NCBI GenBank assembly: GCA_035495615.1
Contig: DATJFP010000005.1
Location: forward strand, 340 to 64,339
DNA: 64,000 nucleotides
Direction of reading: 5' to 3'
Origin: Verrucomicrobiia bacterium
GTDB taxonomy: Bacteria; Omnitrophota; Omnitrophia; Omnitrophales; Aquincolibacteriaceae
Of the stretch, positions 5,301 through 24,949 are shown one piece after another. Positions within the stretch are counted from its first letter, which is position 1. The number at the start of each line of letters is the position of its first letter. A program made the position numbers and the translations under genes. The notes under the pieces were generated by a model, which was not told where the DNA came from, ran no database searches, and saw only the letters and a program-made list of their open reading frames with translations.

Positions 5301-5466
5301 GTTGCTTGGCTTTTGTTGAAGATTTAGGACTGGGGACTGAAAGGGCTGGGTCATTTCTACTTTTCATAAAATCTAAACATCGGTATAGCCTCAGGTCGCA
5401 GAAGGGATGGTTAGAAATTTCTGAAAGGACAAAAGTCTTTGCAGAAGGGACTAGCCATGGATCCAA
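2332..5466 (-). CDS. Chemotaxis CheB methylesterase-CheR methyltransferase fusion protein with coiled-coil and C-terminal PAS domains. The longest ORF starts at TTG; the true start may be the in-frame ATG at 5367 or 5280.
   Basis: CheB motifs IVGIGASAGGLEA and VLVQHL. CheR motifs FFRDPETFEAL and TGCSTGEEAYSLAI. Long heptad coiled coil ELQSxNEEL, then PAS-like C-terminus. No histidine-kinase domain. Confidence 0.8.
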   Translation of the reverse strand: MDPWLVPSAKTFVLSEISNHPFCDLRLYRCLDFMKSRNDPALSVPSPKSSTKAKQPAAAQNVMSQAGVIEEEASKIPFSIVGIGASAGGLEAATALLQSLPANTGMAFVLVQHLSPTHKSMLSDILSKKSAMPVMEAVNGMEVAPNSVYVIPPNVCMSILNGFLHLQQRKSELHEQNLPIDFFLCSLAEYQKDKAMAIILSGTASDGSLGIKVIKGYGGIVFAQDETAKFDQMPQNAIATGAVDFVLSPERMAQELINISRHPYSNTGAKTDELIPEAESLRQIFMLLRKASGVDFTNYKVTTLKRRILRRMMLNRIDSLKSYISYLVDHPKEIQTLSQEVFITVTRFFRDPETFEALGRDVFSSLIKTRSPNEPIRLWTTGCSTGEEAYSLAINLLEFLEKEDKASTPVQIFATDIMAPSIEHARLGIYPENIVNDVSPERLKRFFRKIDKGYQVNKSLREICVFAKHNITADPPFSKIDLISCRNLLIYLDGTVQKRIMPILHYALNPGGFLLLGQSENIVAFPELFSVVNKKAKIYSKKSFLRTPSLMLPARASSQEVPAAASPAVPSGAPSIADIQKEADRVVLKMVHHCGVVINEAMEVVQFRGDTSRYLKHLPGTASLNLFKMLQEGLSAEIRNAIQKATETNASCKTQNIRMSSHSEGSLDVSIKVSPFKVPLKNQRFFLIVFEQPGSAALPKSETQSGPETASPVSDKELAKELESTRLHLQGLLDDKEAAYDELQAANEEVLSTNEELQSLNEEFQSANEELESAKEELQATNEEITTLNDELQSRNLQLTELNDDHINLMNSISLPLVMVGRDLRIRRFTPAAEKVLRLIRNDIGRPLSDIRSDMDLQDLEAMLLEVMRADTVKELELRSQKAQWYKIQIRAYKTSDQKIDGAIVTFTDITRLKTYAYYRETIFQTVRHPLLILNAVLRVKSANKAFYETFQVKPEDTLNCLLFSLGNGQWNIPTLRKFFEELLPKRKVISNYEVQHNFPRIGRRTMLLNACQIEADDNGEDSILLSIDDITESKAQGNLTSGI

Positions 5467-5491: not shown

Positions 5492-5867
5492 ATCTAAATG
5501 CGCCCTTTTCTCTAAAAAATTATTTTTCTTCGTCGGGGTTCGCCTGACAGAGCGGGCACCGCTCTTTTGTGCTCATTTCTGCTCCCTATTTCCCACTTAC
5601 CTGCGAATCATGCTTGGCTCCAGGGCGCTCACCCCCTCTCGCGCCACCAAACGTGCGCTCCTTATTCGTCGCGCGGCGATTGCCCATGAGGGCGGCGCTC
5701 GCTCGCTTCGACCCCTGTAAAAAAAATTACGCCCGACAGGGGTCGGCCACTACGGCTCGCGGACGAGCCTGCGTCGCCTCCCCTCACTCACTGTCGCGCG
5801 GCCTTCGGCTAGCGCGCTCTTCCGGCCATAAGGCCGGCGTTCGTTCGCTTCAATTCTTGCCGGAAAA

Positions 5868-5941
5868 TACGCCCGGCAGGAATTGAACCTGCAACCCTCA
5901 GTTCCGAAGACTGATGCTCTATCCAATTGAGCTACGGGCGC
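5868..5941 (-). tRNA. tRNA-Arg (anticodon TCG)
   Basis: Reverse complement GCGCCCGTAGCTCAATTGGATAGAGCATCAGTCTTCGGAACTGAGGGTTGCAGGTTCAATTCCTGCCGGGCGTA; anticodon loop CUUCGGA gives anticodon UCG. Confidence 0.85.
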
Positions 5942-6046
5942 AAACAACCTTGCTTTTGATCAATCGAAGTTTGCGCTTCCCCGCGAGGCCTTCCTTGAGC
6001 CGAGACGGGGCCGTACCTGCGCAGCCGGCGCAGGTGCGGGCGCGCA

Positions 6047-7009
6047 TCATTTCAACCGCTCGAACACCAGCGCCAGCGCACCGAGATCGCCGACGCTGCC
6101 TTTCAACTTCGAGCGCACGATCTTCACTTTTTTGACGGCTTCGGGCCAGGCGTGATGGCGGCAGCTCTGCATCATGATCTGCTCGAAGCGCCGCGGGGCC
6201 GAAGCCCAGACGCCGCCGCCCAGGATGACTTTTTCCGGATTGATGATGTTGAGGAGGTTCGCGATGCCGATGCCCAGGTAATAGCCGGCCTTCTCGAAGG
6301 ATTTCACGGCCACGCTGTCTCTCTTCGTCGCGGCCTCGCCCACGTCGCGCCCCGTGAGAAAGCCCTGTTTGTCCATGCGCGCCGCGAGGATCGTCCTCTT
6401 GCCTTTGCGCACCTGCGATTCCGCGTGACGCGCAATGGCCGTCCCCGAGCTGTAAGCCTCGAGGCAGCCTTCGTTGCCGCAGCTGCACAGGTTGCCGTCC
6501 GGCACGATGATCATGTGGCCGATTTCCCCCGCCACGTAATTGGCACCTTCGAGCAGCTTGCCGAAGGTGTAGATGCCTCCGCCGATGCCTGTACTAACCG
6601 TCATATAAATGAAGTGCTGGCAGCCTTTGGCCTGCCCGAAAATCTTCTCCGCGACCGCGGCGGCGTTGGCGTCGTTGGCCATGAGGACCGGAAGTGAGAA
6701 TTCTTTTTCGAGCAGGCGCGCGAGAGGAAGTCCCTTCCAGCCTTTCAGGTGCGGGGACCGCGGCACGATGCCGGTCCTGGAATCCACGGCGCCGGGAGCT
6801 CCGATGCCGATGCCCAGGACCTTATATTTTTTGGCCTTGGCCGTGTGAAGGATTTCGCGGATGGCTGCTTTCAACTCGGCGATGCAGGCCTTGGTTTCGG
6901 CTCCGGTGCGCGTGGGAATTCTGCGGTGCACGAGGATTTTCCCGGAGGGAGTTCCGAGAACCATGGAAATTTTGGTGCCGCCAATGTCGATGCCGATTGC
7001 GGTTTTCAT
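6047..7009 (-). CDS. ROK-family sugar kinase (glucokinase-like)
   Basis: N-terminal IGIDIGGTK ATP-binding motif. ROK zinc motif CSCGNEGCLE and GHMIIVPDGNLC. Start trimmed to MKTAIGIDIGGTK because the longer ORF would overlap tRNA-Phe. Confidence 0.75.
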   Translation of the reverse strand: MKTAIGIDIGGTKISMVLGTPSGKILVHRRIPTRTGAETKACIAELKAAIREILHTAKAKKYKVLGIGIGAPGAVDSRTGIVPRSPHLKGWKGLPLARLLEKEFSLPVLMANDANAAAVAEKIFGQAKGCQHFIYMTVSTGIGGGIYTFGKLLEGANYVAGEIGHMIIVPDGNLCSCGNEGCLEAYSSGTAIARHAESQVRKGKRTILAARMDKQGFLTGRDVGEAATKRDSVAVKSFEKAGYYLGIGIANLLNIINPEKVILGGGVWASAPRRFEQIMMQSCRHHAWPEAVKKVKIVRSKLKGSVGDLGALALVFERLK

Positions 7010-7042
7010 TTGCCTAGGTCTCAGGGGGTTTGAATCATAATG

Positions 7043-7115
7043 TGGGCAGGGACGGAATTGAACCGCCGACACAGGGATTTTCAGTCCCTTGCTCTACCGA
7101 CTGAGCTACCTGCCC
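7043..7115 (-). tRNA. tRNA-Phe (anticodon GAA)
   Basis: Reverse complement GGGCAGGTAGCTCAGTCGGTAGAGCAAGGGACTGAAAATCCCTGTGTCGGCGGTTCAATTCCGTCCCTGCCCA; anticodon loop CUGAAAA. Confidence 0.85.
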
Positions 7116-7259
7116 TCATTATAAACTTTTGAAGCGAGGAGGATTCCTCACTCGCTGATAGGTAGGAAACCTTGTGAAATTATAGGGATGCGGGGATGAA
7201 AGTCAATGACTCAAACAGGCGGGTCAGGAGGGGCAGGACGCCCTGCCCCTCCCGTGTGT

Positions 7260-10200
7260 TTACATTTTGACTTCAACGAGCGGGCCCCCGCGGTCGGAGG
7301 CCAGTTCGAGCATTTCCGAGACTCTCAGCTTGAACAAGGCGCGCAAAATTTTGTTGCCGTTTTCGCGGCCGAGAAGAAGCGTGATCATCCGGATCTTCTG
7401 CGCATGGAATTCTTTATTCTCGTCCACTTTGATCTTGTAGTTGTTGATTTCCCCGTTCGGGAGGACTTCAAGGACGGTTTCGACGACCTTTCCGGCATCG
7501 TCGATGAGCCGGACCCCGATTTTAAGGGGCCCCGTTCCGCCCGCATTGTCCAGCAGGCTGCCGCCGAGGGCAAGCCCGACGGAACCGTCCGCTCCCGCGG
7601 AGATGAAACCATTGGGATCCGGACTGCCGAGCACGATCGTCCCCAGGGCCTTCGCGCTGCTCCGCAAATCAAAGCGGACGTCGAGCTCCTTGTTGCCCTG
7701 CGCGTCCTGCACTCGCGAAGGAGTCAGAAACGCGTTGTTGGAACGCTGCATGGAAACCGAAAGACGATTCAGGACCTGGACCGCGGTGCTTGAGGCCTTG
7801 CTGTTGCCGACGATGACCGGCGCCTGCAGGCGCGAACCGCCCAGCATGTATTTGATCGCGCCTTTGTTGTCCGCGGTCTTGTTGAGATTCCTGTCCATGT
7901 TGAATCCCCAGGCCACGATGGCCGAGGCGTCGAATCCCTCTTCCCCGTTTTTGCCCACGTTCAAGACGAAATTCTGCAGGTCGGTCCCGAGCTTCAGGAC
8001 CTGCTTGCTCATCCTGCCGTTTTTATCTTGGAACCAAACTTCCATGAAAGAGCCGTTTCCGGCCGCGATCACGAAATCACGGTTGGAGAAATTCTGCGGT
8101 GCGGTGAATTTGAACATGGCGCCGACTTTCGCGCCGCCCGACGCCAGGTGGAAACGCATGGTGTCGTTTTCGAGCGTCACAAAGCCGGAATTCACGCCGA
8201 AAGATTCCTGCTTCATGTCGCCCAGGCTCGTCAATGCGGCGCTGTTATAAGCGCTGCCGTACGTGTAGGGATCCGCCGCGGCAAGAGCGGAAATCTGCGG
8301 CTTGATCCCGAACTGAATCGTGCATTGCCCGCGTTTGGCCGCGCCGTCTTTGTTCTTATGGCGAAAGACGATCGAGGTCACGGCGCTGATGTCGAAGCCG
8401 GGAATGCTGAATCCGCCGAGAGGAAGGTCGGTGAATTCCGCGCCCATGGCCACGCCGTTGACGGTGTACTCATGGCCGTCTTTGTCTTTCAAAATCAGGG
8501 TCACGTTTTTGAGCTCGCCTTTGTACTGGATGTTGTGCGGCTGGCTCAAATCCAGCGACTGCCCGGCGGGCATATCGATCTTCACGTCCGAATACGCGTT
8601 CGTCGCGGAAAGATCGGAAATGAAGGTGATCACGCGCTTGTTGTCTGAGGTGATGACGTCCTGGGTGATCCTGCCGTAGCCGATGGCTTTGCCCGCGTCG
8701 GACGACGTGCTGGAACCCGTGAAAGAAATTTCCGCGCCCGACGGCAAGCTCACCGGATCAGCCGGCACGTTGCGGTCGTACGGATTTTTCGGGAAGGGCG
8801 AGCCGATGTCGATTTGGACGTCGGCGCCTTTTCCGCTGAGCGTCACGATCGCGGAGGCCTGCATCACGGCTCCGTTGTCGGCGGAATACGTAAGCGCCAG
8901 GACATATTTTCCGGCAGTCCCGGCCGCGGTGCTCGGAACAAATTGAATGCTGAGGATCTTGATGTTCGGCGCCTTGAAAAAGCTGATGCCCGCATCCGCG
9001 GCCGCTTTCTCATAGGCCGCGAGGAGCTTGTCCTGCAGCAGATTGGGCACGTTGTGCAGCGCCATCCGGAACAGATCCCCGGACACTCTGCCGTCCCTCA
9101 CCACGAAATCGCGGTGGGCCTTCACGAAATTGATGACAATGCCGCGTATGTCGCGGAGAGACGGCCCCATGGCGAGCATGTAATTGACGAACTGGAAGAC
9201 GTTCATCAAATAATTGCCTTCGCCCGGATGGAATTCGCCGACCGTTTTGGCATCCAGTCCCGCGAGGACAAGATAACCTTCCGGCGGCAGCCATCTGCCG
9301 GAGCCCATTCTTTCCATTTCCGACATGAGGACGGCGGCAAGGTCTTTTACGGACACAACAAGCGTGGCGTCCGCTCCGGTTTCGATGCGCACCGACGACT
9401 GCATGATCTGCGTGTAGAGCGCGGTGAGCCGGCTCATCACGTCATGTTCCAGCGCAAGCCCCTGGTCCGAACCCGGGCCCTGGAACGGGAAAACAACGAG
9501 CCCGCCGTGTTCCGGCGTACGCGGCTGAAGGGCCTGGATTTTCGCGCGCAATTCTTCCAGGATCGCCCTTGCCTTGGCGGACAGGTCTTCGAGCAGCTTG
9601 TCCAGGGAATCAAACTGGCTTTCGGAAATCACGTCGCCGACCTGGACGGACTTGAAAAGGTCCTCGATCTGCTGACGGCTTGCGGCCAAAGCCTCGCGGA
9701 TCTGAATTTCCGGATCCGGAGCGGCCTTGTCCTCCATGTTCGTGATCGAAGTATTGGGAGCCAAATTGACGATTCTCAATTTATAGCCCTGCGGCACCTC
9801 GATGACCGTTCCCGGTTCGAGCGTCGCCATGTCGACGTCCACGCTGTAGAGATCAATGGACATTCCGCCGTCAGGCGTAGGCGCGGACGGCGTCACGCGC
9901 ACGGTGAACTGCCCCATCATCACGGGACGCGTGCAGCTCATGTTGGGTTCTTTCCAGCCGAAGCAGCCGTCTTCGACAAAGCTCACCAGGACATCTCCTG
10001 CGCCTTTCGCGTCGAACTCGTAATCGCGGCTGTCGTTCCTTACGTCCGCGTGATTGAAACGCAGCAGTTCGCTGCCCGCGAACGCCGCCCTTTCCTGATC
10101 CGTCGGATAGGAAACAACGGGAGGCTCGACGTTCCTGTCGACGGAAGCAAGGATGATCAAAGCATCCTGCACGTCGAAGACGCCGTCCTGATTCACGTCA

Positions 10201-13200
10201 AAATTCATCTTTAAAATTCCGGCGGCCGGATCCGCCGAAAGCAGGTGCTCTTTGAAAGGTTCTCCGTCGTTCAGCGTCGCGTCTTCGGCTGCGGCCCCGT
10301 CATCGATAATCAGCTCGGCTCCGGACACGGCCGCGTTTTCCGTGTTGGGAATAAACGGCAGCGTCCACCAGAGCATCTTGTTGTAAAGCCCCGACAGGGC
10401 CTGATTCAGATCCGCCTTGCTTACCACGCCGTCGTTGTCGAGATCCGAATTTGCGATGAGAACATCCGTCAGCGCATCCACGGAAAATTCGGCGTCAAAG
10501 GACGTGGTGACGTTTTCGCTGAAAGGCGCGGACGTCGAATAAGCCAGGAATTTAACGGCTCCCTGCTTGTCCGTTTTCACGCCGATGAGAGATTCGAAGC
10601 CGTCGAAGGTAATGGCCAAACCGCCGTTGGTGGTCTTTCCGAAAGCATCCATGGCGATGAAATACTGCCCGTCGCCGATGCGGCCTTCCTTGATCGCCAG
10701 GCGGACCGCGTCCAGCATGGCCTGATGCCGGGGATTCAAAACCCCGTTGCGGAATTCCAGCATCATGGATTCGCCGTTCGAGAGCTTCACTTCATAAAGA
10801 TGGGTCTTCACGTACATCAGCTGCCGGAAAGCCGGAAGCGCGTCGCCGTGCCCCACAAACTCCGGATAAAGGCCTTCCTGGAAATCGATGGATTCCTTGG
10901 CTTCGCCGTGCTCGAGCACCAGGTCGCCGTAGCCGGCAAGAATCCCGGCTTCCGCCGCGGCCCATTCTTCGTCACGGGCTTTGATCTTGGCTTCGAGATC
11001 CGAGATCAGCCCCGGAAGTTCGTCATGGCGTTTCACGGCCGCGGCAATAAGATCCCGCAGCGCCTGTTCCATGTCACCCACGCCTCCGATCGCGTCTCCA
11101 GCCTTGTCCGCAAGAGCCTTTGCATCGTCGAGATTGCCCGCGTCCAGCGCCTTTTTCAGCGCTCCCGCGATCTCGTCGAGCCGGGCGATCAGCATTTCAT
11201 AAGCCGGCATGGACTCGGGCCTCATGAGAAGCATTTCGGGATCCATCTTCCCATTCAAAATCTGGTTGAGCTTCTTGAGTCTCTCTTCGAGTTCCTTGTT
11301 CATGCCCCTGGACTTGATGAATTCCTCGCCCAGGCCGCGGAGCTCGGCGATGGCGGAATCAAGCGCCGCCACGATTTCCTTATAATTAGGATCTTCCGGC
11401 TTGATGTTCTCAAGCTTCGCCGCCTGCGCGAACAGGTCTTCCAGAGTGTGGAAAAGAATTTTCCGCTCCGTGCCGTCCGAGAGGTGGATCACCGCGATGC
11501 TGCCGCGCGAGAGCGTGACGTCCAGGCTGTCGATGACGCCGTCCTGATTGAGATCCGAAACCGCGGAGCTCGGGACCGGGATCGCTCCACGAATCGTCAG
11601 CGTTGAGAGTTCGCCATGCGCGCCGGTCCTGTTGATTTTCACGATCACGCCGCTGTTGGCGTCGGAATATTCAAACTTGTTGATGACCTGCAGGACGTTC
11701 TCTTCGCCCTTACCGTCTCCTTGGGTGTATTCATAAACTACGTCGATATTGCCGGGCGTGCCGCCGGCGTATTGGACATAGCGCATCGTGATGCCCTTTT
11801 CCGCGAGAGGATAGCGGATAAGGGGCCGCGAACCGCGGGGCGCGGGAGGATAAATCATGGTGTGCATGGTCGCGCACATGCCGTCCGCGTCGAAAGAGCA
11901 TTGATAGTAGTCCATGCCGTTGTAATCGATTTCCTTGAAGACCTGGTCCGCGGCAAAACAGGCCGCGCCCTTGGGGCAATAGCGGCTGAACATGCTGACC
12001 CTGTCCACGGTGTTGTTGTTCCACATGTTCTGGTCGTAAGAAACCGAAATGTGGACGAGGTTGTGCGACTCACCCGTGATTTCCTGAATCGTGACCGGGC
12101 CCTCATAGAAAAGCTCCGCGGAAACGAGCATCAGGTGCTTCGGCTGGCGGCCAAAATACATCAGAGGAATCGCGTCGTCCTTCATTTCCACTTGTTCGCC
12201 GTCGGCCTGCGCCGTTTCGAACATGAGCGCGTCGGCTTCGTCAGACGGCGCCAGGGTGCTCATGCGCAGCTCCGAGCCCGGTTCGGCGGCGATCATGTCT
12301 TCCGATAAATCCACCGTGACCGGATCAAGCATGATGGGCATGAGACGTTTCGGTTCGACCGGATTCTCCTGGAACGTGAATTCCATGTCCGAGGGAATGA
12401 CGAATTCGCCCAGTGGATCGATTTCCGCGGGCTGGATGTGCGTGCCTACCGCTTCACCGCTGAAATGGATGGACGCAATGCCTGCATCCATGTCGATCTT
12501 GATCGTCATGAGTCCTTTTTCGATCCAGGACTGAACTCTGTCGTTACCCAGGCCGTACGTGCTTCCCAGATCGGCCAGGACCGCTTCACGCACCGCGGTT
12601 TCCGGAATTTCCGTATCTTCGATAGGCTGGACGTCGTTGACTTCGTAGAAGAGGCCCATCATTTCGCTCATGTGGTTCAGAGAGCCGGTCGCCTTGTAGC
12701 GCTTGCCGTCGGCGTTGAACTCGATGTTGTACGTGACAAGCGAAGCGCAGAATTTGCCGGCTTCGCAGGGCGACATCGTGGAGACGCCGTCTTCGAACTT
12801 CTCGATCTTGATGTTCTTGAAGTCCACGTTCAGATTGAGAGCGAGCTCCGTGCGGAAATGATCCTGCAGCGAAAGCGGCGAGAAATTCCAATCCGCGAAC
12901 TGCCGCATCACCGCGGTCTGCATGTCGTCCTGTGGGTGGAATTCGAAAGCCACGATGACTTCCTGGCCGGGAATGACTTCGCGCGCCTGGATGCCTTCGG
13001 CCTTGTCCGCGTTGAGGAGCAGCGGGCCGGGGGCCTGGATGTAACGCAGATTCGGATTCACGGTCACCGAAGCCAGGAAATGCCCGTTGAAATCCTGATA
13101 AATCGGATAAGGCCCCATGTTCGGGTCTTTGGGAAGCCCGTCTGAATTCTGAATCGCGACGGGAGGCAGGATCAAAGCGGCGCGCATCAGGTGGACATGC

Positions 13201-16200
13201 GCTTCTCCGGCAACAGCCTTGAAAACAAATTCCTTCACGTTGCCTTTAATCCTCATGCCCTGCAATTCCAAGGCATCGCCCACGGTGGCCTGGATCAAGT
13301 CGACCAGATCCTTGTCCATCTGACCGACGGGAATGAAATCCCTGTCCCTCACCAGACGGCCCGTGATGACGAAGGTCGTCGTGGTTTTCCAGCCTTCATT
13401 AATAGATACGGTGCTATAGGTCACGATGTCTTCGAAACCGTCTTCCAGAGGCACCCGGTCGGACGGCATGCCGTGGCAGGCGGCTTTCATCATGGGATTG
13501 GCCGGGCAGCTGAACTCGGAAATTTTAAGCGTGTCGATCTCGGTGAATTTTTTCACCGTGCCGTCCGCGCCCGTCCACACGGCCTCGAGCTTTTCCCAAT
13601 TTACTTCGACGACATTGCCGTCTTTGTCTTTCTGGTAGATGAGGCGGCCTTTCTCGTCGAATTTGTTTGTGACGTCCTCATGCGTTTCCGGTTTCGCGGC
13701 AAGAGAAATCAAAAATTCCGCGAGTGGGTCTGTCGCCTGCGCGGCTTCCCCGCCCGCCGAGTCGAGATGGGCGTCGATGGCGCGGCGGTTGCCGTCGGCA
13801 TCGAGATAAACGCCGGTCACGTTCGCGGCGGCGCCGTCATATTCAAAGGTCGCCCGCACGCGGTCATGATGGTCACGGCGCACGATGGAGACGCTCAGGC
13901 TTTTGATCGCGTTCGGCGCGTAGTAGGGATACCGGATCGGCATCTGCGCGCCTCCGGCCGCCGCTTTGTCCGCCAGGACCGAACTTCCGGCCATGGGCGC
14001 CGAGTCATACGCAACCATGGGATACAGAATGTAACCATTCGCATGATCGAACTCCACGCTGCGGGTGTCTTCGAGAACCAGCCCGCCGCCGGACGTGAGC
14101 ACCCTGCGATGGACAGCCGCGAACTGCCCGAACGCGTCCACGGTAAAGCGGTCCATGATGCGGTAGCGCTTGGTGCCGTCAAAAATTTCCGAGGCAATGC
14201 TGATCAGGACGCCGGAATCATCGTACGTGTTATGCTGGCGCGCGGAGTAGACAATCTTTCCCGCCTTGTATTGATCTTCCGAATGGCTCAGGAGGCGCTT
14301 GGACGAAAAATTGGGGTACGGCCAAAACATGCGGTCCGCGGGAAGCGTCGTGACTCCCGTGGCGGTCATGGGAGACGATTTTGCCACCGCATTCGGCTGG
14401 GCGCCAGCCGCGCCATTCAGCAGGACCTTGTCGTAATAATAGGGATAGTAATTGAGCGGGCCGGTGATGTCGTAAGAATCGGAAACACGCTGCGTCAGCT
14501 CGCCGTCTTCGGTGTAATTTTCCTGCTTCGTTTCCTGGAAATTAGGTTCGCCCTTGTCGTCCAGGCGGTAATGGTCGGTCGTCACGGAAGCCATCATGGC
14601 CTCGGCGGGATCCTTGGACGCGAAATAGCTGATGTATTCGCGTTCGACCAGGCCCTTGATCCCCGCGCGGTAATGCGGGTCCCAGCGGACCACGTCGTAG
14701 ACCGCGAGCGGATAAATATTGCCCGGTCCGGAATCCTGCATCGGGTTCGAAGGCGAATACTTGGGGTCATACCGTTCGGTCCATTCGTTCAAGAGGACGT
14801 TGTCCGGGCCGTAATCGCTGCCGCGGATGAGAAGCAGATTGCCGGTGTCGGCGTCATACCGGAAAGACTGGACGTTCCGGCCCTGGACCGTCAGGGGCTG
14901 ATCGCCGTATCCCGAAAAAGTCCGCGTCGCGGCTTTGATCACCTGCCCTTTGGCGTTGAAGGCCTTGCTCGTTTCGTAGCGGTAGGTTTCTTTGCCGTCA
15001 TCGAAATTGAAGCTGCTGTTGGCGGAGACGCTGGTCTTCATGCTGCCGTCGTCGCGGTACGTGATGTTCAGTTCGTTTCTCCATGTCACCTTGCCCTGAT
15101 AAAGCGATTCGGTCACTTCGCTGACCAGCTTGTCGGTAATGACGCCCGCGGCATCCGTCAGGAACGTGCGCGTGGTCGTGGTCTCGCTCGAGACCGCCCC
15201 ATTCGAGCTGTACGTGACGTGCTTGGAGACTTCGTTGCCCGCGGCATCGTATTTCGACTGCTCGAGCGTCTCGTTGGAATAGGAATAGTTCGGTCCGGTG
15301 CTGGTAGAAACGGTCTTCTTCTCGAGTACGCGGCCCGCTTCATCCCGGGTGTAAGTCGTTTCGGTCTTGCTCGAGCTCTGCCAGCTTCCGGTATTTTCGT
15401 AGATGTCGATTTCGCGGAGCAGATTGCCCGCGGCATCATATTCGAAGGTCTGCTCGGACGTGGAAGCGCTGCTCTGCCCCTGCGGGTATTGGTAATCGCT
15501 TTTCGAGACCGCGCTGAGAAGCTTGCCGGCGTCGTTGCGCGTCTCGATGCGGGAAGAAGTGCCGTGCCCCTGGTCCTGGCCGTCCAGGAAGCTCTGCCAC
15601 GACTGCTCCTGCTTGAGAAGATTCCCGTTCGCATCATAGGATTCCTGGGTCGTGCTCTTCGACTCGGAAGTCTTCGGGATGCCGTCGGCATCCGTGTAAA
15701 AGCTCATGGAAGACGACACGACTGTCTTATCATTTCCGTTGTACGTCGTCATCGTCATCGAGGTCCACGTCTTTTCCATTTCGCCCGTCTTGGCATTCAG
15801 GCCGAGGCTTTCGGAAGCTTCCTCGGTAACACGGTCTTTGTCGTCGAAAGTCCGGATAACGGAGTACTGAGACGTGAGGCCTTTGTCATCGTAGGAAAAT
15901 GATTTGTAAGAGAGCTGCTGACCCGAAGCGGACTTTTCTTCCGTGGAAGAAAGGAGAAGACGGCCCGCATCAATGCTGACCGTGTAGGACGCCTGAGAAC
16001 CATCCTCGTTTTTGTGGATGAAAATGATCTGTCCGTCCTGCGAAGAAGGCACTTGAGGATTGGACAAATTCGCGAGCGCTTCGTTGCCCGACGCCGCAAA
16101 AGGATGGCGGAATTCCGACTGGTCGAGGACGTAAGACTCCTCGAGATTCAGCTGTTTGTAAATGATCGCGCGCGCCTGTTCGGCAACATCTTTTTCCGAA

Positions 16201-16568
16201 CGCATCCGCTTCGCCAGCTCCTCCTTGGAAAGAAGCCCCTCTTCTTCCTCGGTCACGATTTCTCCGCCCAAAGTACGGATCTTGTCATCGGCCTGATTTT
16301 CGACCTTTTCTTCCTTGGGGGATTCCGCGTCGGTCGTCAGCACACCCTCGTTGCTCATCATGAAGATCTCGGAAGTCGAAGCGTCTTCCTCTTCCGGCGC
16401 CGCCTCCGGCTTTTTCTCGTCCGCCTTGATCTCTTTTTGGGGAGTGGACACACCGGTGGCGTTGAAGTCATCAGCTTCCTGGGACCAGCCGAGCGGAACG
16501 ATCTGGGTCAAAGTCATCGTGACGGACACGAGCAGACACATGAACTTCTGGAGTTGGCTGGTTTTCAT
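7260..16568 (-). CDS. Giant 3102-aa secreted protein. N-terminal signal peptide. Acidic linker. YD/RHS-type repeat region at about residues 225-930 (nt about 13780-15900). Three dockerin/EF-hand-like DxNxDGxxD Ca-binding loops at nt about 11516-11558, 10406-10445 and 10157-10199. Coiled-coil/ALA-rich segment. C-terminal beta-rich, possibly carbohydrate-binding-like region.
   Basis: Single uninterrupted 9309-nt ORF. Repeats YDANGNLL, EYDAAGNLL, KYDAAGNEV, TYRDDGSM, RYDADTGNLL, YTEDGEL, TYDDSGVL, EYDGAA. Loops DLNQDGVIDSLD, DLDNDGVVSKADL and DVNQDGVFDVQD. N-terminus MKTSQLQKFMCLLVSVTMTLTQ is signal-like. No RHS cap or C-terminal toxin motif recognised. Confidence 0.75.
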   Translation of the reverse strand: MKTSQLQKFMCLLVSVTMTLTQIVPLGWSQEADDFNATGVSTPQKEIKADEKKPEAAPEEEDASTSEIFMMSNEGVLTTDAESPKEEKVENQADDKIRTLGGEIVTEEEEGLLSKEELAKRMRSEKDVAEQARAIIYKQLNLEESYVLDQSEFRHPFAASGNEALANLSNPQVPSSQDGQIIFIHKNEDGSQASYTVSIDAGRLLLSSTEEKSASGQQLSYKSFSYDDKGLTSQYSVIRTFDDKDRVTEEASESLGLNAKTGEMEKTWTSMTMTTYNGNDKTVVSSSMSFYTDADGIPKTSESKSTTQESYDANGNLLKQEQSWQSFLDGQDQGHGTSSRIETRNDAGKLLSAVSKSDYQYPQGQSSASTSEQTFEYDAAGNLLREIDIYENTGSWQSSSKTETTYTRDEAGRVLEKKTVSTSTGPNYSYSNETLEQSKYDAAGNEVSKHVTYSSNGAVSSETTTTRTFLTDAAGVITDKLVSEVTESLYQGKVTWRNELNITYRDDGSMKTSVSANSSFNFDDGKETYRYETSKAFNAKGQVIKAATRTFSGYGDQPLTVQGRNVQSFRYDADTGNLLLIRGSDYGPDNVLLNEWTERYDPKYSPSNPMQDSGPGNIYPLAVYDVVRWDPHYRAGIKGLVEREYISYFASKDPAEAMMASVTTDHYRLDDKGEPNFQETKQENYTEDGELTQRVSDSYDITGPLNYYPYYYDKVLLNGAAGAQPNAVAKSSPMTATGVTTLPADRMFWPYPNFSSKRLLSHSEDQYKAGKIVYSARQHNTYDDSGVLISIASEIFDGTKRYRIMDRFTVDAFGQFAAVHRRVLTSGGGLVLEDTRSVEFDHANGYILYPMVAYDSAPMAGSSVLADKAAAGGAQMPIRYPYYAPNAIKSLSVSIVRRDHHDRVRATFEYDGAAANVTGVYLDADGNRRAIDAHLDSAGGEAAQATDPLAEFLISLAAKPETHEDVTNKFDEKGRLIYQKDKDGNVVEVNWEKLEAVWTGADGTVKKFTEIDTLKISEFSCPANPMMKAACHGMPSDRVPLEDGFEDIVTYSTVSINEGWKTTTTFVITGRLVRDRDFIPVGQMDKDLVDLIQATVGDALELQGMRIKGNVKEFVFKAVAGEAHVHLMRAALILPPVAIQNSDGLPKDPNMGPYPIYQDFNGHFLASVTVNPNLRYIQAPGPLLLNADKAEGIQAREVIPGQEVIVAFEFHPQDDMQTAVMRQFADWNFSPLSLQDHFRTELALNLNVDFKNIKIEKFEDGVSTMSPCEAGKFCASLVTYNIEFNADGKRYKATGSLNHMSEMMGLFYEVNDVQPIEDTEIPETAVREAVLADLGSTYGLGNDRVQSWIEKGLMTIKIDMDAGIASIHFSGEAVGTHIQPAEIDPLGEFVIPSDMEFTFQENPVEPKRLMPIMLDPVTVDLSEDMIAAEPGSELRMSTLAPSDEADALMFETAQADGEQVEMKDDAIPLMYFGRQPKHLMLVSAELFYEGPVTIQEITGESHNLVHISVSYDQNMWNNNTVDRVSMFSRYCPKGAACFAADQVFKEIDYNGMDYYQCSFDADGMCATMHTMIYPPAPRGSRPLIRYPLAEKGITMRYVQYAGGTPGNIDVVYEYTQGDGKGEENVLQVINKFEYSDANSGVIVKINRTGAHGELSTLTIRGAIPVPSSAVSDLNQDGVIDSLDVTLSRGSIAVIHLSDGTERKILFHTLEDLFAQAAKLENIKPEDPNYKEIVAALDSAIAELRGLGEEFIKSRGMNKELEERLKKLNQILNGKMDPEMLLMRPESMPAYEMLIARLDEIAGALKKALDAGNLDDAKALADKAGDAIGGVGDMEQALRDLIAAAVKRHDELPGLISDLEAKIKARDEEWAAAEAGILAGYGDLVLEHGEAKESIDFQEGLYPEFVGHGDALPAFRQLMYVKTHLYEVKLSNGESMMLEFRNGVLNPRHQAMLDAVRLAIKEGRIGDGQYFIAMDAFGKTTNGGLAITFDGFESLIGVKTDKQGAVKFLAYSTSAPFSENVTTSFDAEFSVDALTDVLIANSDLDNDGVVSKADLNQALSGLYNKMLWWTLPFIPNTENAAVSGAELIIDDGAAAEDATLNDGEPFKEHLLSADPAAGILKMNFDVNQDGVFDVQDALIILASVDRNVEPPVVSYPTDQERAAFAGSELLRFNHADVRNDSRDYEFDAKGAGDVLVSFVEDGCFGWKEPNMSCTRPVMMGQFTVRVTPSAPTPDGGMSIDLYSVDVDMATLEPGTVIEVPQGYKLRIVNLAPNTSITNMEDKAAPDPEIQIREALAASRQQIEDLFKSVQVGDVISESQFDSLDKLLEDLSAKARAILEELRAKIQALQPRTPEHGGLVVFPFQGPGSDQGLALEHDVMSRLTALYTQIMQSSVRIETGADATLVVSVKDLAAVLMSEMERMGSGRWLPPEGYLVLAGLDAKTVGEFHPGEGNYLMNVFQFVNYMLAMGPSLRDIRGIVINFVKAHRDFVVRDGRVSGDLFRMALHNVPNLLQDKLLAAYEKAAADAGISFFKAPNIKILSIQFVPSTAAGTAGKYVLALTYSADNGAVMQASAIVTLSGKGADVQIDIGSPFPKNPYDRNVPADPVSLPSGAEISFTGSSTSSDAGKAIGYGRITQDVITSDNKRVITFISDLSATNAYSDVKIDMPAGQSLDLSQPHNIQYKGELKNVTLILKDKDGHEYTVNGVAMGAEFTDLPLGGFSIPGFDISAVTSIVFRHKNKDGAAKRGQCTIQFGIKPQISALAAADPYTYGSAYNSAALTSLGDMKQESFGVNSGFVTLENDTMRFHLASGGAKVGAMFKFTAPQNFSNRDFVIAAGNGSFMEVWFQDKNGRMSKQVLKLGTDLQNFVLNVGKNGEEGFDASAIVAWGFNMDRNLNKTADNKGAIKYMLGGSRLQAPVIVGNSKASSTAVQVLNRLSVSMQRSNNAFLTPSRVQDAQGNKELDVRFDLRSSAKALGTIVLGSPDPNGFISAGADGSVGLALGGSLLDNAGGTGPLKIGVRLIDDAGKVVETVLEVLPNGEINNYKIKVDENKEFHAQKIRMITLLLGRENGNKILRALFKLRVSEMLELASDRGGPLVEVKM

Positions 16569-16760
16569 TTACTGCCCCCTTGAAGAGAATTTTTGAATGT
16601 ATTTGCTTATTATTGCTATATTTCTAATTACATCTCGGGCAACTATATTAATCTCTTTAAAAGCCTACCTTATAAACTAGCCCAAATCAACGCTGCATGT
16701 AACATCTTTTAAAGTACACTTAAAAACTATATCAGAACGGCAAATCTATCTATCAAAAAG
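16569..16760 (-). promoter_or_regulatory. AT-rich (sharp GC drop) promoter or regulatory island directly upstream of the giant gene; contains direct repeats AACTATAT (x2) and TCTTT(T)AAAG (x2)
   Basis: Composition contrast with the GC-rich flanks; position immediately 5' of the 7260-16568 minus-strand start. Confidence 0.4.
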
Positions 16761-16901: not shown

Positions 16902-19900
16902 TTAGATTTTCACGTCAACGTCATCGGAGGACGCCCGGCGCGCGGCCAAACGTCTTTCTTCGATCATTCTTTTGATCTTCTCGCGGCGGCGCGTTTCTTT
17001 CATCCGGTCCATCATACTGTCCAGCCATCCCGTCTCTTTTGAATCTTTATGCCGGACATCCGCATCCATCCGCTTCTGCACATTTTCCGGAGAAGGCTTA
17101 GGGGGCATGAGCGGATCCAGCTTTGTTTCTTGCTGGGTCAATATTTTGTCTTCCGGACCGGCTGCCATGGAGTTTTCGTCCGCGATATCATTCGCGGGCA
17201 ATTCGGGAATTCCAACGATCCGGCTTTCTTTGCCCGGCTCCGGAGAGAACATAAAAGGCTTTAAGCGCCCCTGGGGAGCGTCTTCATCTTCGTTTTCATC
17301 AGTCTTGGCTTTGTCCTCTTTGTCTTTGCGTTTTTCCTTTTCGTCTTTATGTTCAGGCTGGTCCTCGTCGATCTTCACCGTGCGAAAGCCGACCGGCCGA
17401 ACCACCAGATGCACGACAGCGCCTTCGACGATATCGCCGCTGCCTTGATAGTCCTGAGAATTTCCCGCCCCCATGTTGCTCTTGAACGTAAAGACATAGG
17501 AAGCGTTCGAAGAAAGCATGGCGGAAGCGGACGCATCCGCCGCTCCTTCGGTGCCCGCGGCCGGATTCGGCTCAATTTTCAATTTGCTGATTTGTCCCAG
17601 CTCTTCCTTCATCTCCAAAGCCCGCCGTATAAGCTGGCGATGGACGTTCAGCATTTTCTGAGACTTCAGCGTGGCGGTGTTCGCGGTTTTAATATCTACG
17701 CCGGTTCCCTCCTGGGAAACCGTCGGATGAATTTCCTCAACAGTCGCGGAAGAATCTCCCTGACCCGCAATTTCTTCCTTGGGTTCCACGGAAGAAACGG
17801 GGGCGTCCTGGACAACGGGTTCCTTGATCGTTTCTCCGGAAGAAACCGCGGGCTCTTCAAGGATGGGCTTAAGCGGTTCTTCAACAGGCGTGTCTTCGAT
17901 CGTGCCTTCATGAATTACCTGATCCCCCGCCGTTTCCGTGGCAGCTATTCCGCTCCCCTCTACCGCGAGCGTCCTTCCCTGCTCATCGACCGAAGAAGAT
18001 TCCGCGGGCACCTCTTCATGACTGACGGCCGTCTCACCGGATACAATGCCGCCTTCGCGGCCCTCCACGGGGACCTCGCTTCCGTCTGTCACAGTCTCTT
18101 GCGCGCTCACCGCCTCACCTTCTCCCGCCGGCTGCGCGGTGTCCTGATGAATCTCTTCTCCGGATGCCGGGTTCTGCGGCTCCTCGGCATTCATGATGTC
18201 GGATGCAGAGGCGCCGGAATTCTGGCCGGTGCTTTCCTCGGTGATAATGGCGGCGTGTCCGGGCATTTCGATGGGATCTGCGTCACGATGCTCCGCCTGG
18301 ATATCGCCGCTCGCCGCAACCTCTCCCGCAGGCTCTTCTGCCGGCTGGCTGGAATCTTCGTGGATCTCTTCCGCGGCGGCGTGCTCTTCAGAGGCAAGAG
18401 TTCCCGAGAAGATGGGCAGTCCATTCACCATCGTGCCGTCGAATCCCAAAACAACGTCCGTTTGCTTTTCTTTGAATTCCGCCATGTAACGGCGGATGGG
18501 TTCCGTAAGCCGCACGGCGAATTTGCCGCTCGACTCCAGGCTTTTCAGGCCGACGAGAATGGCCGAATCCGGCTCCAGATTCGGAATAATCCCCGCGAAG
18601 TGTCCGGTGATATCGAAGCTCCGGCCGACCTCATCCACGATTTTTCCATTCCCCATTTCGACATTTGCGATATGGAGGCTCAGCTGCCTGTGCGGCCCTT
18701 CGCCGGTTCCGTTATTTTCTTCCATCAAATAAACCACTTTGTGGGCGCAATCTTCTCCCGTGCATTCTTTTTTAGGGAAATTGGTCAGAACCATGACCCG
18801 CGCGCCGCTATCGTGATGAAACCCAGCAAGCATGTCCTCGACGTCTCTTTTGACGGACGGCTGCGCGGGAGTTTCCGGATGCTGCGGGTGTTCCGGGTGC
18901 TCGGGGTGTTCCGGATGCTCAGGATGCTCCGGATGTTCGGGATGCTCTTGGGCATTCTGCTCGACATGTTCCTCAGCCGGATTCGCGGCATGTTCTTCGA
19001 CCGGCTTGTCCCTATGCTCCTCAGCCGGCTTATCGATATGCTCTTCAATCTGTTCGTCGGCGTGCTCTTCGGCGGGTTTCTCCACATGCTCGGCCGCATG
19101 CTCCTCGACCGGCTTCTCGACATGCTCTTCAGCCGGCTTGTCGGCATGTTCCTCAGCGTGTCCGAGAGCTTCGTGCAATTTGGCTTGGATTTCTTTTGCC
19201 TCATCCAAAGCCTTCGCCACCTCATCGACGATCTTACCGTTCGCCTTGGTCCAGGCTACGGTATCGCCCATTTCCTTTTGGATGTCGGCGACCGTTGTGG
19301 GAACCGTGTTTGATTCTACGGTTTTCACATCGGCGTCATCGACCTGTCCATCCTCGTTTTTATCAAAAACCTCAACCGCCCGATGGTTAATCCGGCTTAG
19401 TTTTTCCACTCCAAGATTGAGATCATCGATGTTGTGCGCCGTCAGGCTTTGAAGGCCCGCCGCCAAATCGACATTGGCCCCCTCAAGCTGGGACTGAAGT
19501 TCCCCTTCCGTTTGAGAAAATTCCTGCGCGATCTTTTTGAGTTCGTTCAGCTGGTAAACCTGGGCCGAGACATTCTTGAGAAACACAATCCTTCTTTCCA
19601 TGAGATCCCGGCTGTTGAGCTCCGGCTTCGGCTCCCGTTCCGCTTTCGGTTCGGGCTTATGATCTTGGACGGGAGTTAATTTGATCTCGACATGGAAAGG
19701 TTCTCCCTGTCCGGGCTCACTTCTGCGGACGCTGGCGATGCCCGTAAAACGGCGGCCTTCGGGATTTTCGATTTTGACTTCAAACACCGCTTTGTCTGAG
19801 GTCGGCTCCAGTTCGTAGCGGCCTTTGTCGCCGAATTTTTTCGTCAGGCGCTGGATCACCATGTCTTTAAACGACACCGCATTGTCGGAACCGCCGAGGC

Positions 19901-20360
19901 TTCCCGGAAGAAGGGCCGGCGCCTTGTCATGCTCGCGGCGCTCTTTGGCTTCGCGGATTTTTTCTTCAAGCGGGAGGCTGCCAATGTGGACGGCTCTGCC
20001 CGACTTGACGTCGAAGATTTCCGTTTTGCGGTCCGTTATTTTACTTTCTGCTTCTTTGGCGTAATCCGCGTAAGGAGGAAGGCCGCTGTGCTCTTCTTGT
20101 TCTTTCCGGCGCTCGATGGCTTTGTCGATTTGGCCTACGCCGATAACGGGCGTGATCCCATTATCGGTCTTTTGGATTTCGGCCTGCTCTTCCGCGAATC
20201 CCAGCGGACCTCCCTGCGTTAATACCATGGCGAAAGAAATCGCCACCGCCAAAGATTTCAGGCCGATGTTGGAGCGGATGATCATAGATTCCCCCTCAAA
20301 AAGATTTTTCCAAGAATGAAGACTTTTGCTAGTCGCCGTACTATAGATATCGGTGTTCAC
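16902..20360 (-). CDS. Large secreted acidic His/Glu/Pro-rich tandem-repeat protein of unknown function, with one dockerin/EF-hand-like loop (FDKNEDGQVDDAD); likely start at the internal MIIRSNIGLKSLAVAISFAMVLTQ (about 20285)
   Basis: 1152-aa ORF. Signal-peptide-like segment. Repeats xEEHxxKP (8-aa period, about 9 copies) and HPE (x7). Very acidic low-complexity C-terminal half. Confidence 0.6.
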   Translation of the reverse strand: MNTDIYSTATSKSLHSWKNLFEGESMIIRSNIGLKSLAVAISFAMVLTQGGPLGFAEEQAEIQKTDNGITPVIGVGQIDKAIERRKEQEEHSGLPPYADYAKEAESKITDRKTEIFDVKSGRAVHIGSLPLEEKIREAKERREHDKAPALLPGSLGGSDNAVSFKDMVIQRLTKKFGDKGRYELEPTSDKAVFEVKIENPEGRRFTGIASVRRSEPGQGEPFHVEIKLTPVQDHKPEPKAEREPKPELNSRDLMERRIVFLKNVSAQVYQLNELKKIAQEFSQTEGELQSQLEGANVDLAAGLQSLTAHNIDDLNLGVEKLSRINHRAVEVFDKNEDGQVDDADVKTVESNTVPTTVADIQKEMGDTVAWTKANGKIVDEVAKALDEAKEIQAKLHEALGHAEEHADKPAEEHVEKPVEEHAAEHVEKPAEEHADEQIEEHIDKPAEEHRDKPVEEHAANPAEEHVEQNAQEHPEHPEHPEHPEHPEHPEHPQHPETPAQPSVKRDVEDMLAGFHHDSGARVMVLTNFPKKECTGEDCAHKVVYLMEENNGTGEGPHRQLSLHIANVEMGNGKIVDEVGRSFDITGHFAGIIPNLEPDSAILVGLKSLESSGKFAVRLTEPIRRYMAEFKEKQTDVVLGFDGTMVNGLPIFSGTLASEEHAAAEEIHEDSSQPAEEPAGEVAASGDIQAEHRDADPIEMPGHAAIITEESTGQNSGASASDIMNAEEPQNPASGEEIHQDTAQPAGEGEAVSAQETVTDGSEVPVEGREGGIVSGETAVSHEEVPAESSSVDEQGRTLAVEGSGIAATETAGDQVIHEGTIEDTPVEEPLKPILEEPAVSSGETIKEPVVQDAPVSSVEPKEEIAGQGDSSATVEEIHPTVSQEGTGVDIKTANTATLKSQKMLNVHRQLIRRALEMKEELGQISKLKIEPNPAAGTEGAADASASAMLSSNASYVFTFKSNMGAGNSQDYQGSGDIVEGAVVHLVVRPVGFRTVKIDEDQPEHKDEKEKRKDKEDKAKTDENEDEDAPQGRLKPFMFSPEPGKESRIVGIPELPANDIADENSMAAGPEDKILTQQETKLDPLMPPKPSPENVQKRMDADVRHKDSKETGWLDSMMDRMKETRRREKIKRMIEERRLAARRASSDDVDVKI
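18880..19165. repeat. In-frame coding tandem repeats inside the 1152-aa gene: 9-nt HPE repeats (about 18880-18945) and 24-nt AEEHxxKP repeats (about 18958-19165)
   Basis: Periodic ggatgctc and atgctcctcgaccggcttctcgac units visible in the sequence. Confidence 0.7.
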
Positions 20361-20487
20361 TCAAAAGGTTACTTCATGATAAAAAACTTTTCAAGCGCCT
20401 TTAAAAACTACATATAAACCAAGGCATCATGTGAGGTTACGCGGGTTTAAGGCGCTTTAAAAAGTAGGATAAGTCTGGCGGGTGGGG

Positions 20488-24947: not shown

Positions 24948-24949
24948 GC

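Follow-up and report, generated by a model that had tools for sequence, protein, structure and literature searches.

Bacteria of the Omnitrophota are uncultured, ultra-small and probably host-dependent, and they possess enormous surface proteins that are thought to mediate attachment but that are too large and too dark to study. Long Omnitrophota proteins carrying dockerin, discoidin or carbohydrate-binding module (CBM)-like modules have been read as adhesins of host-dependent cells, and the presence of dockerin-type and CBM-like modules together with Rhs-reminiscent beta structure has already been described in long exported proteins of these bacteria (West-Roberts et al. 2023, 10.1101/2023.11.21.568195; Seymour et al. 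2023, PMC10066038). The gene considered here is located at 7260-16568 on the reverse strand, (-), of a 64-kb stretch of contig DATJFP010000005.1 (assembly GCA_035495615.1), called the window in what follows, and it encodes a protein of 3102 residues, called the giant. With a probability of roughly 0.55, the giant is a modular protein that evolves fast, leaves the cytoplasm by the Sec route to work outside it as an adhesin or scaffold, and belongs to a small, lineage-restricted family. An earlier reading of the DNA, made without database searches (the sequence-only reading), had suggested an adhesin or scaffold, and this is still the best-supported view, because of the folds of the protein (a YD-like sheet and a CBM-like C-terminal triplet), its export signal and other export features, the DsbA and MauE/DoxX genes in its neighbourhood, the occurrence of the same triplet on Ig/cadherin-array proteins (the relatives P0008 and P0014), the fast evolution of the chromosomal slot in which the gene resides and the published views on Omnitrophota.

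The two accounts cited above and a 2026 catalogue (bioRxiv 10.64898/2026.06.07.730766) served as the Omnitrophota comparison set. By published description, the giant resembles other Omnitrophota giants in its N-terminal signal, its mostly unannotated sequence and its syntenic Omnitrophota flanks, as well as in its calcium loops of the dockerin/EF-hand type, its beta modules of CBM-like type and an extended beta structure with antiparallel strands, which is said to share features of Rhs repeats; the role proposed, in which the protein attaches to or processes glycans at cell surfaces, is also alike. However, the 'Dockerin-type' giants of West-Roberts et al. have at least 30,000 residues and many dockerin and TSP3 repeats, while the protein described here is 10-50 times shorter, has three loops, gives no Pfam match to TSP3, SecA-like or C39 domains and lacks a C-terminal transmembrane anchor. 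Its modules are C-terminal tandem units that resemble CBM11 and not CBM35, and its gene has neither a type II secretion locus nor a pilus locus next to it. The combination of YD repeats with dockerin-like loops, regarded as unusual in the sequence-only reading, is less unprecedented in the light of these descriptions (10.1101/2023.11.21.568195; PMC10066038). A term search in the three published accounts did not meet the family signature or the conserved hypervariable slot presented below.

Coding sequence, export signal and relatives

The gene is a single open reading frame (ORF) that starts with ATG, contains zero internal stops and is preceded, 7 nt 5' of the start codon, by a Shine-Dalgarno-like AAGGGGG. 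The G+C content of third codon positions (GC3) is even over the entire ORF (0.68-0.79), and codon usage is similar to that of the host, the relative synonymous codon usage correlating with that of nine neighbouring genes with r = 0.96 (0.93 per third of the ORF). Therefore, the giant is one native coding sequence without a compositional seam, and the uninterrupted 9.3-kb ORF reported earlier is confirmed; the long ORFs on the opposite strand are shadows of its GC3-rich frame. No strong internal repeats were found when the protein was compared with itself by BLAST.

Since the source is a metagenome-assembled genome (MAG) and the giant sequence stands in a single-member cluster, an assembly chimera or a non-functional ORF has to be considered. 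This explanation is extremely improbable. Besides the uniform GC3, the host-like codons and the Shine-Dalgarno site, the gene has a conserved promoter region and a terminator, and equally long single ORFs, whose N-termini are colinear with that of the giant and which share its C-terminal modules, occupy the slot in independent assemblies. For instance, the 3119-residue relative P0002 was independently assembled, occupies the same chromosomal position and is colinear with residues 1-960 of the giant, which makes an assembly artefact unlikely. The synteny of the slot among independent loci answers the same worry.

The sole hydrophobic 19-mer of the giant is N-terminal, in agreement with the signal peptide recognised in the sequence-only reading. 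This signal peptide comprises residues 1-29 (MKTSQLQKFMCLLVSVTMTLTQIVPLGWS, followed by QEA; 16482-16568(-)) and finishes with a motif, TM-x-x-TQ-x-x-P-x-G-aromatic-[A/S/T], that is unusually conserved across the family. The motif appears as VTMTLTQIVPLGWS in the giant, LTMVTTQVLPFGYT in P0002, GAMTLTQVVPYGFS in P0003, VTMAVTQALPYGHA in P0007, VTMTLTQAVPYGFA in P0010 and FAMVLTQGGPLGFA in the upstream companion ORF of the window. It is also present (CMVVTQGLPFGWS) in a 1224-residue ORF next to P0010 (27318-30992 of locus L007), and a DNA-pattern search of metagenomes provided two more genuine cases, L002 and L003. In the former (Ga0172379_10000209, a 158-kb contig), a gene opens with the family signal peptide AAAMALTQAMPYGWAQ. 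Apart from its remarkable conservation, the motif looks like any signal peptidase I site (P at -5, G at -3 and A, S or T at -1), and cleavage is predicted after S29. The cysteines of the giant are arranged in five close pairs (1021/1031, 1268/1274, 1531/1537, 1557/1565 and 2202/2212), which are invariant in the family wherever they could be aligned (1268/1274 in alignment A8 and 2202/2212 in alignment A7) and which probably belong to disulfide-bonded extracytoplasmic domains.

Whole-protein searches of Pfam, NCBIfam and PDB sequences gave nothing over threshold save the NCBIfam model YD_repeat_2x. On ten segments of the protein, PHROGs gave no match and Pfam nothing other than RHS_repeat. A word-index search with the full protein retrieved only its own record, 'hypothetical protein VL688_00295 [Verrucomicrobiae bacterium]', and neither a scan of genome contigs with the full protein nor a metagenome scan with the N-terminal alignment produced a match. 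Queried with residues 201-1000 and 960-1902, the word-index search gave no record, that of the giant included, an outcome that reflects the candidate filter of the search on sub-regions more than a lack of relatives. The same genome contigs scanned with the core of region E (see below) yielded only Omnitrophica UBA2337, in which a P0013-like protein of 2806 residues shares that domain alone. An exhaustive phmmer search with residues 1903-3102 against 1.84 billion representatives recovered nine other proteins only, the named ones among them all belonging to MAGs of Candidatus Omnitrophota/Omnitrophica.

Aligned by BLAST, these relatives together account for nearly the whole giant, the gap being residues 1739-2082, a stretch for which no family homologue was found. 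Residues 1-966 of P0002 are colinear with the giant up to its residue 960 (25-29% identity), and the rest of the giant matches P0002, P0003, P0007, P0009, P0010 and P0013 in shuffled order. P0002, P0003, P0007 and P0015 contain zero Pfam domains. In P0008 and P0014 the same C-terminal triplet as in the giant ends arrays of Big_9, cadherin, He_PIG and PKD domains, which are typical building blocks of adhesins. As far as can be judged from sequence comparison, these proteins form a small, lineage-restricted family whose members are mosaics of private domains.

Folds and modules of the protein

The signal peptide is followed by an acidic low-complexity linker and a short conserved N-terminal segment (residues 30-179; 16032-16481(-)), defined on the translation, which aligns with P0002 and L003 and contains an HPF motif invariant among the three sequences. 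Residues 180-960 (13689-16031(-)) constitute a divergent YD/Rhs-like beta-hairpin meander, recognised by Pfam, NCBIfam, AlphaFold (AF2) and Foldseek. Eight YD-type motifs are present in the giant, versus 0.26 expected from shuffles, and six of them fall within residues 200-1000; the motifs quoted in the sequence-only reading are there, namely EYDAAGNLL (residue 376), RYDADTGNLL (residue 570) and TYDDSGVL (residue 781). YD_repeat_2x (TIGR01643) reaches 20.6 bits on the whole protein (cut-off 15.8). The Pfam model RHS_repeat (PF05593; cut-off 22) reaches 29.9 bits on residues 201-560 and 19.5 on the whole protein, and a segment search with it gave no match on residues 500-960. Thus, of the approximately 700 residues of YD repeats proposed earlier, the motifs and the profile match on residues 201-560 stand, while the remainder is not recovered by the profile.

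The AF2 model of residues 140-960 was built from an alignment of three sequences only and has a mean predicted local distance difference test (pLDDT) value of 61. Values are below 35 at residues 140-179 and rise to 80-94 at residues 180-520 approximately, where about 26 strands, each 10-14 residues long, follow one another without a break in an antiparallel meander, the connecting turns having 2 and 5 residues in alternation. In agreement with these hairpins, D-x-x-G turns recur about every 15 residues in the N-terminal sequence. Residues 540-960 are aromatic-rich, contain inserts and are modelled with low confidence. The top Foldseek matches are Rhs proteins linked to the type VI secretion system (T6SS), 8qja_D (E 1.7e-15) and 8qjb_A (E 4.8e-14), and the next matches, to LptD, are ten orders of magnitude behind. 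A membrane barrel was excluded because the strands are rich in Ser, Thr, Glu and Lys on both faces and no hydrophobic stretch is present. TM-scores on the Rhs proteins are about 0.1 and global superposition fails; the profile of the N-terminal alignment (A1) searched against PDB sequences gave no significant relative and, in particular, no Rhs, Tc or teneurin chain. In our reading of the model, the local building block would be the YD/Rhs hairpin. Of the N-terminal YD shell of the sequence-only reading, the YD/Rhs-like hairpins are kept, while a closed shell is not supported by the superposition (TM-score 0.1) or by the low-confidence model of residues 540-960.

YD-type hairpins are shared with the Rhs/YD-repeat proteins at large (T6SS Rhs effectors, the TcB-TcC component of Tc toxin, WapA and teneurins), as are scores over cut-off with RHS_repeat/YD_repeat_2x on a sub-region, and 8qja and 8qjb are the best structural matches. 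Although these repeats and Foldseek matches could speak for a polymorphic toxin of the Rhs type, or a contact-dependent effector, with an unusual layout, such an identity is very unlikely. The repeats of the giant are highly degenerate, its YD part is N-terminal with 2100 residues after it, the Rhs-associated core was not found in Pfam or NCBIfam (E <= 1), and regular-expression searches found neither the PxxxxDPxGL motif nor paired DPxG motifs, so that neither core nor autoprotease motif is at hand. Moreover, the C-terminus is CBM-like instead of an encapsulated toxin, and downstream of the gene there are a hairpin and tRNA-Phe, not an immunity gene. No T6SS, PAAR, VgrG or CdiB genes are found among the Pfam-scanned ORFs, which comprise all large ORFs with a coding-like GC3 signature. 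The earlier observation that RHS cap and C-terminal toxin are missing is thus borne out, and the option of a contact-dependent effector, also put forward in the sequence-only reading, is unsupported, there being no toxin, immunity gene, T6SS or contact-dependent inhibition genes.

The middle of the protein is a succession of family-specific domains. Residues 961-1075 (13344-13688(-)) contribute more YD-like hairpins (FDEKGRLIYQKDKDGNVVEV) as well as a small domain that holds the Cys pair 1021/1031, detected by BLAST to P0002, P0007 and P0010. Domain B (residues 1076-1310, Cys pair 1268/1274; 12639-13343(-)) is defined by alignment A8, which joins the giant with two copies from P0003 and with P0002 and has C199 and C205 invariant; Pfam and PDB gave no matches to it. 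Region C (residues 1311-1668, Cys pairs 1531/1537 and 1557/1565; 11565-12638(-)) shows 30% identity in BLAST with residues 3284-3650 of P0010 (E 4e-35) and has no Pfam match. An Ala/Glu/Lys-rich, helix-rich spacer (residues 1700-1895; 10884-11471(-)) is a probable coiled coil according to composition-based helix propensity only. Domain D (residues 2145-2292, Cys pair 2202/2212; 9693-10136(-)) is present in three copies in P0003 (alignment A7, 26-35% identity, both Cys invariant), and its search against PDB gave one weak match, 4r5d_A (E 0.0046), with no stretch passing alone.

Region E (residues 2293-2600; 8769-9692(-)), defined by alignments A3 and A4, consists of a coiled coil and an alpha/beta domain in which the motif NVFxxV...LAMGPSxRD(L/I)R occurs. 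No other domain of the family is shared so widely: it is found in P0002 (two copies), P0005, P0007, P0009 and P0013, as well as in the 1224-residue ORF of L007 and in Omnitrophica UBA2337; alignment A3 had no match among PDB sequences. A PepSY-like or chagasin-like identity was dropped after Pfam gave nothing on ten short Cys-pair/helix-strand fragments.

Three D-x-[DN]-x-[DN]-G loops are present in the giant, versus 0.02 expected from shuffles. They start at residues 1672, 2042 and 2124 (11520-11555, 10410-10445 and 10164-10199), where the sequence-only reading had placed three dockerin loops. The calcium loops are real and of dockerin type, sharing with the type I dockerin (PF00404) the 12-residue D-x-[DN]-x-[DN]-G-x-x-x-x-x-D loop followed by a helix, but they are arranged as a single loop plus a split pair and not as canonical dockerins. 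Loop 1 (DLNQDGVIDSLD, residues 1672-1683; 11520-11555(-)), located by regular expression, is a single F-hand, that is, half a dockerin. The fragment around it (residues 1650-1730) scores 16.8 bits with Dockerin_1, whose cut-off is 22.9, and its alignment partner in P0010 is the second loop of a canonical dockerin pair (residues 3964-4016, 45% identity).

Loop 2 (DLDNDGVVSKAD, residues 2042-2053), which gives weak EF-hand matches, and loop 3 (DVNQDGVFDVQD, residues 2124-2135) form a split dockerin-like module (10164-10445(-); regular expression and Dockerin_1). Their starts are 82 residues apart, versus 29 and 38 in the pairs of P0010 and about 30 in type I dockerins, and a tandem pair of F-hands of about 22 residues with a short linker was not found in the giant. 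Dockerin_1 reaches 22.1 bits on the whole protein, which is under the gathering cut-off, 20.8 on a 311-residue segment and 27.4 on residues 2020-2160, matches covering only positions 19-52 of the 57 of the profile; the canonical pairs of P0010 pass Pfam with 29.6 and 34.4 bits.

The protein ends with three tandem CBM11/CIA30-like beta-sandwich modules (residues 2610-2760, 2765-2925 and 2926-3090; 7299-8741(-)). They display the CBM11/CIA30-like jelly-roll fold, with PDB entries 1v0a and 7zkq as comparison structures, and the top fold match comes from a cellulosomal cellulase, which substantiates the beta-rich, CBM-resembling C-terminus announced in the sequence-only reading. However, identity to the family 11 CBMs and CIA30-like sandwiches is only 8-9%, and residues 2560-3102 have no match in Pfam, NCBIfam or PHROG, so that by sequence the modules are not placed in the CBM11 family; a further difference is that they stand in tandem, three in number, at the end of a protein that is not an enzyme. 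The profile of the module alignment (A2) against PDB sequences gave no CBM and no significant relative. This module of about 130-150 residues is present in two or three copies at the C-terminus of the giant, P0002, P0003, P0008, P0010 and P0014, the exception being P0007, with a single copy near the N-terminus. To judge from their modelled fold, the C-terminal modules may bind a glycan.

Dockerin-type loops and a CBM11-like fold whose top match is cellulosomal could also be explained if the giant were the scaffold of a cellulosome-like extracellular polysaccharide-degrading complex, in which the dockerin-type modules would pair with cohesin-bearing enzymes and the CBM-like modules would target the substrate. 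A GH77 gene (26781-28613; Pfam) upstream of the slot, about 10 kb from the start of the giant, would be in accordance with this. Nevertheless, such a complex is improbable: no cohesin or catalytic glycoside hydrolase domain was found in the giant or its two companion ORFs, dockerin-type modules amount to just one and a half, and GH77 is a cytoplasmic glycogen/maltodextrin enzyme whose gene belongs to the conserved flank of every relative.

The chromosomal slot and its regulation

The position of the slot, from DsbA-MauE/DoxX to tRNA-Phe and/or ROK, was read in the window and in loci L005 (P0002), L006 (P0007, GCA_018883425.1) and L007 (P0010, GCA_030698625.1). In the window the order is GH77, response regulator-GGDEF, DsbA, MauE/DoxX, a 504-residue secreted ORF, LytS kinase, LytTR regulator, a secreted ORF of about 1127 residues, the giant, tRNA-Phe and ROK. 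In L005 it is RuvB, DUF2905, DAC, YbbR, PdxJ, Carb_kinase, one unassigned gene, DHH, GH77, GGDEF, DsbA, MauE/DoxX, the 3119-residue protein, a hairpin, a promoter and tRNA-Phe. L006 presents GH77, DsbA, MauE/DoxX, the 1628-residue protein and ROK, and L007 presents GH77, GGDEF, DsbA, MauE/DoxX, a 456-residue ORF, LytS kinase, LytTR regulator, a 53-residue ORF, the 6396-residue protein, the 1224-residue family member, a 280-residue ORF and ROK. A short metagenome contig, L003, has the same order as the window, with the kinase (69% identity), the regulator (58%), a secreted ORF and the N-terminus of a giant (34%). Because this gene order recurs in L003, L005, L006 and L007, the giant is the occupant of a conserved slot.

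The occupants measure 3102 residues in the window, 3119 in L005, 1628 in L006 and 6396 (plus 1224) in L007. Eleven flanking proteins of L005 are colinear with those of the window and 40-79% identical to them, versus 25.6% between the giant and P0002. The content of the slot thus has a fourfold length range and a shuffled domain order, and it diverges much faster than its surroundings, as would be expected if a protein for surface recognition were evolving under diversifying selection.

In each of the four fully read loci, the slot is bordered on the left by a DsbA-like thioredoxin and a MauE/DoxX membrane protein (24498-25723(-) in the window). This border may be functionally linked to the conserved Cys pairs of the slot proteins or may simply reflect conserved gene order. 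With respect to taxonomy, the MAG is labelled 'Verrucomicrobiae bacterium' at NCBI, yet the order of more than 12 genes matches Candidatus Omnitrophota/Omnitrophica MAGs (including GCA_018883425.1 and GCA_030698625.1), so that the organism belongs with Omnitrophota despite its label. Omnitrophia are filed under Verrucomicrobia in SILVA (PMC10066038), and the label probably reflects a taxonomy that nests the former in the latter.

Inside the slot, Pfam identifies a LytS-type histidine kinase (21261-22862(-)) and a LytTR response regulator (20488-21261(-)). This pair is present in three of the five loci (the window, L003 and L007, the proteins of L007 being 54% and 62% identical to those of the window) and absent from L005 and L006. 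Since it lies inside the slot in these three loci, it is a candidate regulator of the slot. The companion ORF upstream of the giant (16902-20285(-), about 1127 residues from the ATG at 20285) encodes a secreted, acidic and His-rich protein with EEHxxKPxEEH repeats and then HPEHPE six times, a very acidic composition, a basic C-terminal tail and one EF-hand-like loop (DKNEDGQVDDAD). It has the same signal-peptide end and promoter-like element as the giant and no family match in Pfam or NCBIfam. Homology to its positional counterpart in L003 (438 residues) could not be demonstrated, as no similarity was detectable. A third secreted acidic ORF (22819-24333(-), 504 residues, no Pfam match) is located between MauE/DoxX and the LytS kinase, and BLAST found no similarity between it and the 456-residue ORF in the same position of L007, which gives a faint dockerin match. 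L007 also indicates that the slot can hold two family members in tandem, the 1224-residue ORF being directly downstream of the 6396-residue relative.

A promoter-like element, TAGTTTTTAAGTGTACTTTAAAAG (16706-16729(-)), lies 138-161 nt upstream of the ATG of the giant, and a second copy (20387-20410(-)) is found upstream of the companion ORF. These are the only two copies in the 64 kb of the 24-nt consensus TAGTTTWTAA-N8-KAAAAG, for which 0 are expected by chance. The element is kept upstream of both counterpart genes in L003 (at about 1659 and 3320), where the approximately 200 nt upstream of the giant reach 78% column identity with the window, although the proteins are only 34% identical. In L005 and L006, which are without the two-component system, variants of the element are found upstream of P0002 and P0007, and the element overlaps a sigma-70-like -35/-10 match. 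Both facts weaken its identification as a LytTR binding site, and a shared promoter core appears more likely.

Between the companion ORF and the giant there is an intrinsic terminator. Past the giant, a GC-rich hairpin (7227-7252(-), 8 nt beyond the stop codon), probably a terminator or insulator, is followed by a near-consensus promoter, TTGACT-16-TATAAT (7179-7206(-)), and by tRNA-Phe (7042-7115(-)), a layout repeated after P0002 in L005. The ROK ORF as listed (6047-7072(-), GTG at 7072) overlaps tRNA-Phe, and therefore its real start must be further downstream. A tRNA-Arg is found at 5867-5942, and a 1044-residue fusion of CheB methylesterase, CheR methyltransferase, a coiled coil and two or three PAS domains is encoded at 2332-5466(-).

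A possible role at the cell surface

If the giant is an adhesin or scaffold, its signal peptide would be cleaved near S29 and the N-terminal part of about 800 residues would form one extended antiparallel sheet, a single layer of YD/Rhs-type hairpins, that serves as a rigid stalk or shell. In the middle, small domains would follow one another with helical spacers between them, five of these domains having a conserved close Cys pair, probably disulfide-bonded. The one and a half dockerin-type calcium loops could dock onto a partner protein, and the three C-terminal CBM11-like beta-sandwiches would bind a glycan on a target cell (host or prey) or on the own envelope. The gene itself sits in a hypervariable slot of the chromosome, where content is exchanged and reordered among related genomes.

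Several observations weigh against this role. The cell is diderm, as the LPS (lipopolysaccharide) export genes LptF/G are present, and a Sec signal alone therefore reaches only the periplasm. A Pfam scan of the window ORFs found no outer-membrane secretion system near the giant, and motif and hydrophobicity scans of the protein detected no LPXTG, PEP-CTERM, lipobox or transmembrane helix that could act as an anchor. Localisation is accordingly the main uncertainty, and a position beyond the inner membrane is what the export features suggest. The dockerin evidence is weak, one single loop and one split pair, and cohesin has no Pfam match in the giant, in the companion ORFs or in the other scanned ORFs of the window, although a divergent partner may exist. 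Furthermore, CBM11-like folds also serve functions unrelated to glycans, CIA30 being an example.

The chief rival is a structural role in the envelope of the cell itself. The giant would then be a coat component in the periplasm or on the own surface, like a surface-layer (S-layer) or wall-associated protein, whose CBM-like modules bind the own peptidoglycan or LPS. The signal peptide without a dedicated outer-membrane secretion system nearby agrees with this alternative, and so does the terminal position of the modules in all relatives but P0007, as is often the case with anchoring domains. The module profile has a weak sub-threshold match to the surface-layer protein 4uic (E 0.04), and a giant protein of V. 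archaeovorus has been proposed to form a coat (PMC10066038). However, the S-layer matches are not significant, and structural envelope proteins are usually conserved, whereas the slot varies from 1628 to 6396 residues and the giant outpaces its neighbours in divergence. A self-envelope role is on balance unlikely, though it comes before the other alternatives; if the giant were merely such a structural protein, it would be of local interest only.

Returning to the adhesin or scaffold, a more speculative extension, which is rather unlikely as a whole, can be proposed. In episymbionts of the Omnitrophota type, the slot would act as a dedicated 'recognition cassette' that recombines rapidly, encoding one or two exported proteins with a lineage-specific signal peptide and, in some lineages, an embedded LytS/LytTR control. 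Swapping of dark disulfide-bonded domains would change host or prey specificity, and the N-terminal sheet would form the hollow antiparallel beta-tubule that has been predicted for the much larger giants. If this were true, the giant, with its 3.1 thousand residues, would be a tractable minimal model of the Omnitrophota giants.

The giant is a compact relative of these proteins (3.1 thousand residues) in which two regions now have an assigned fold, Rhs-like hairpins and CBM11-like modules, and whose family has a defined signature. Binding and structural work could start from fragments that can be expressed, for example the C-terminal modules or the Cys-pair domains. The slot, with occupants of 1.6-6.4 thousand residues amid fixed neighbours, offers a concrete locus in which the diversification of surface recognition can be studied.

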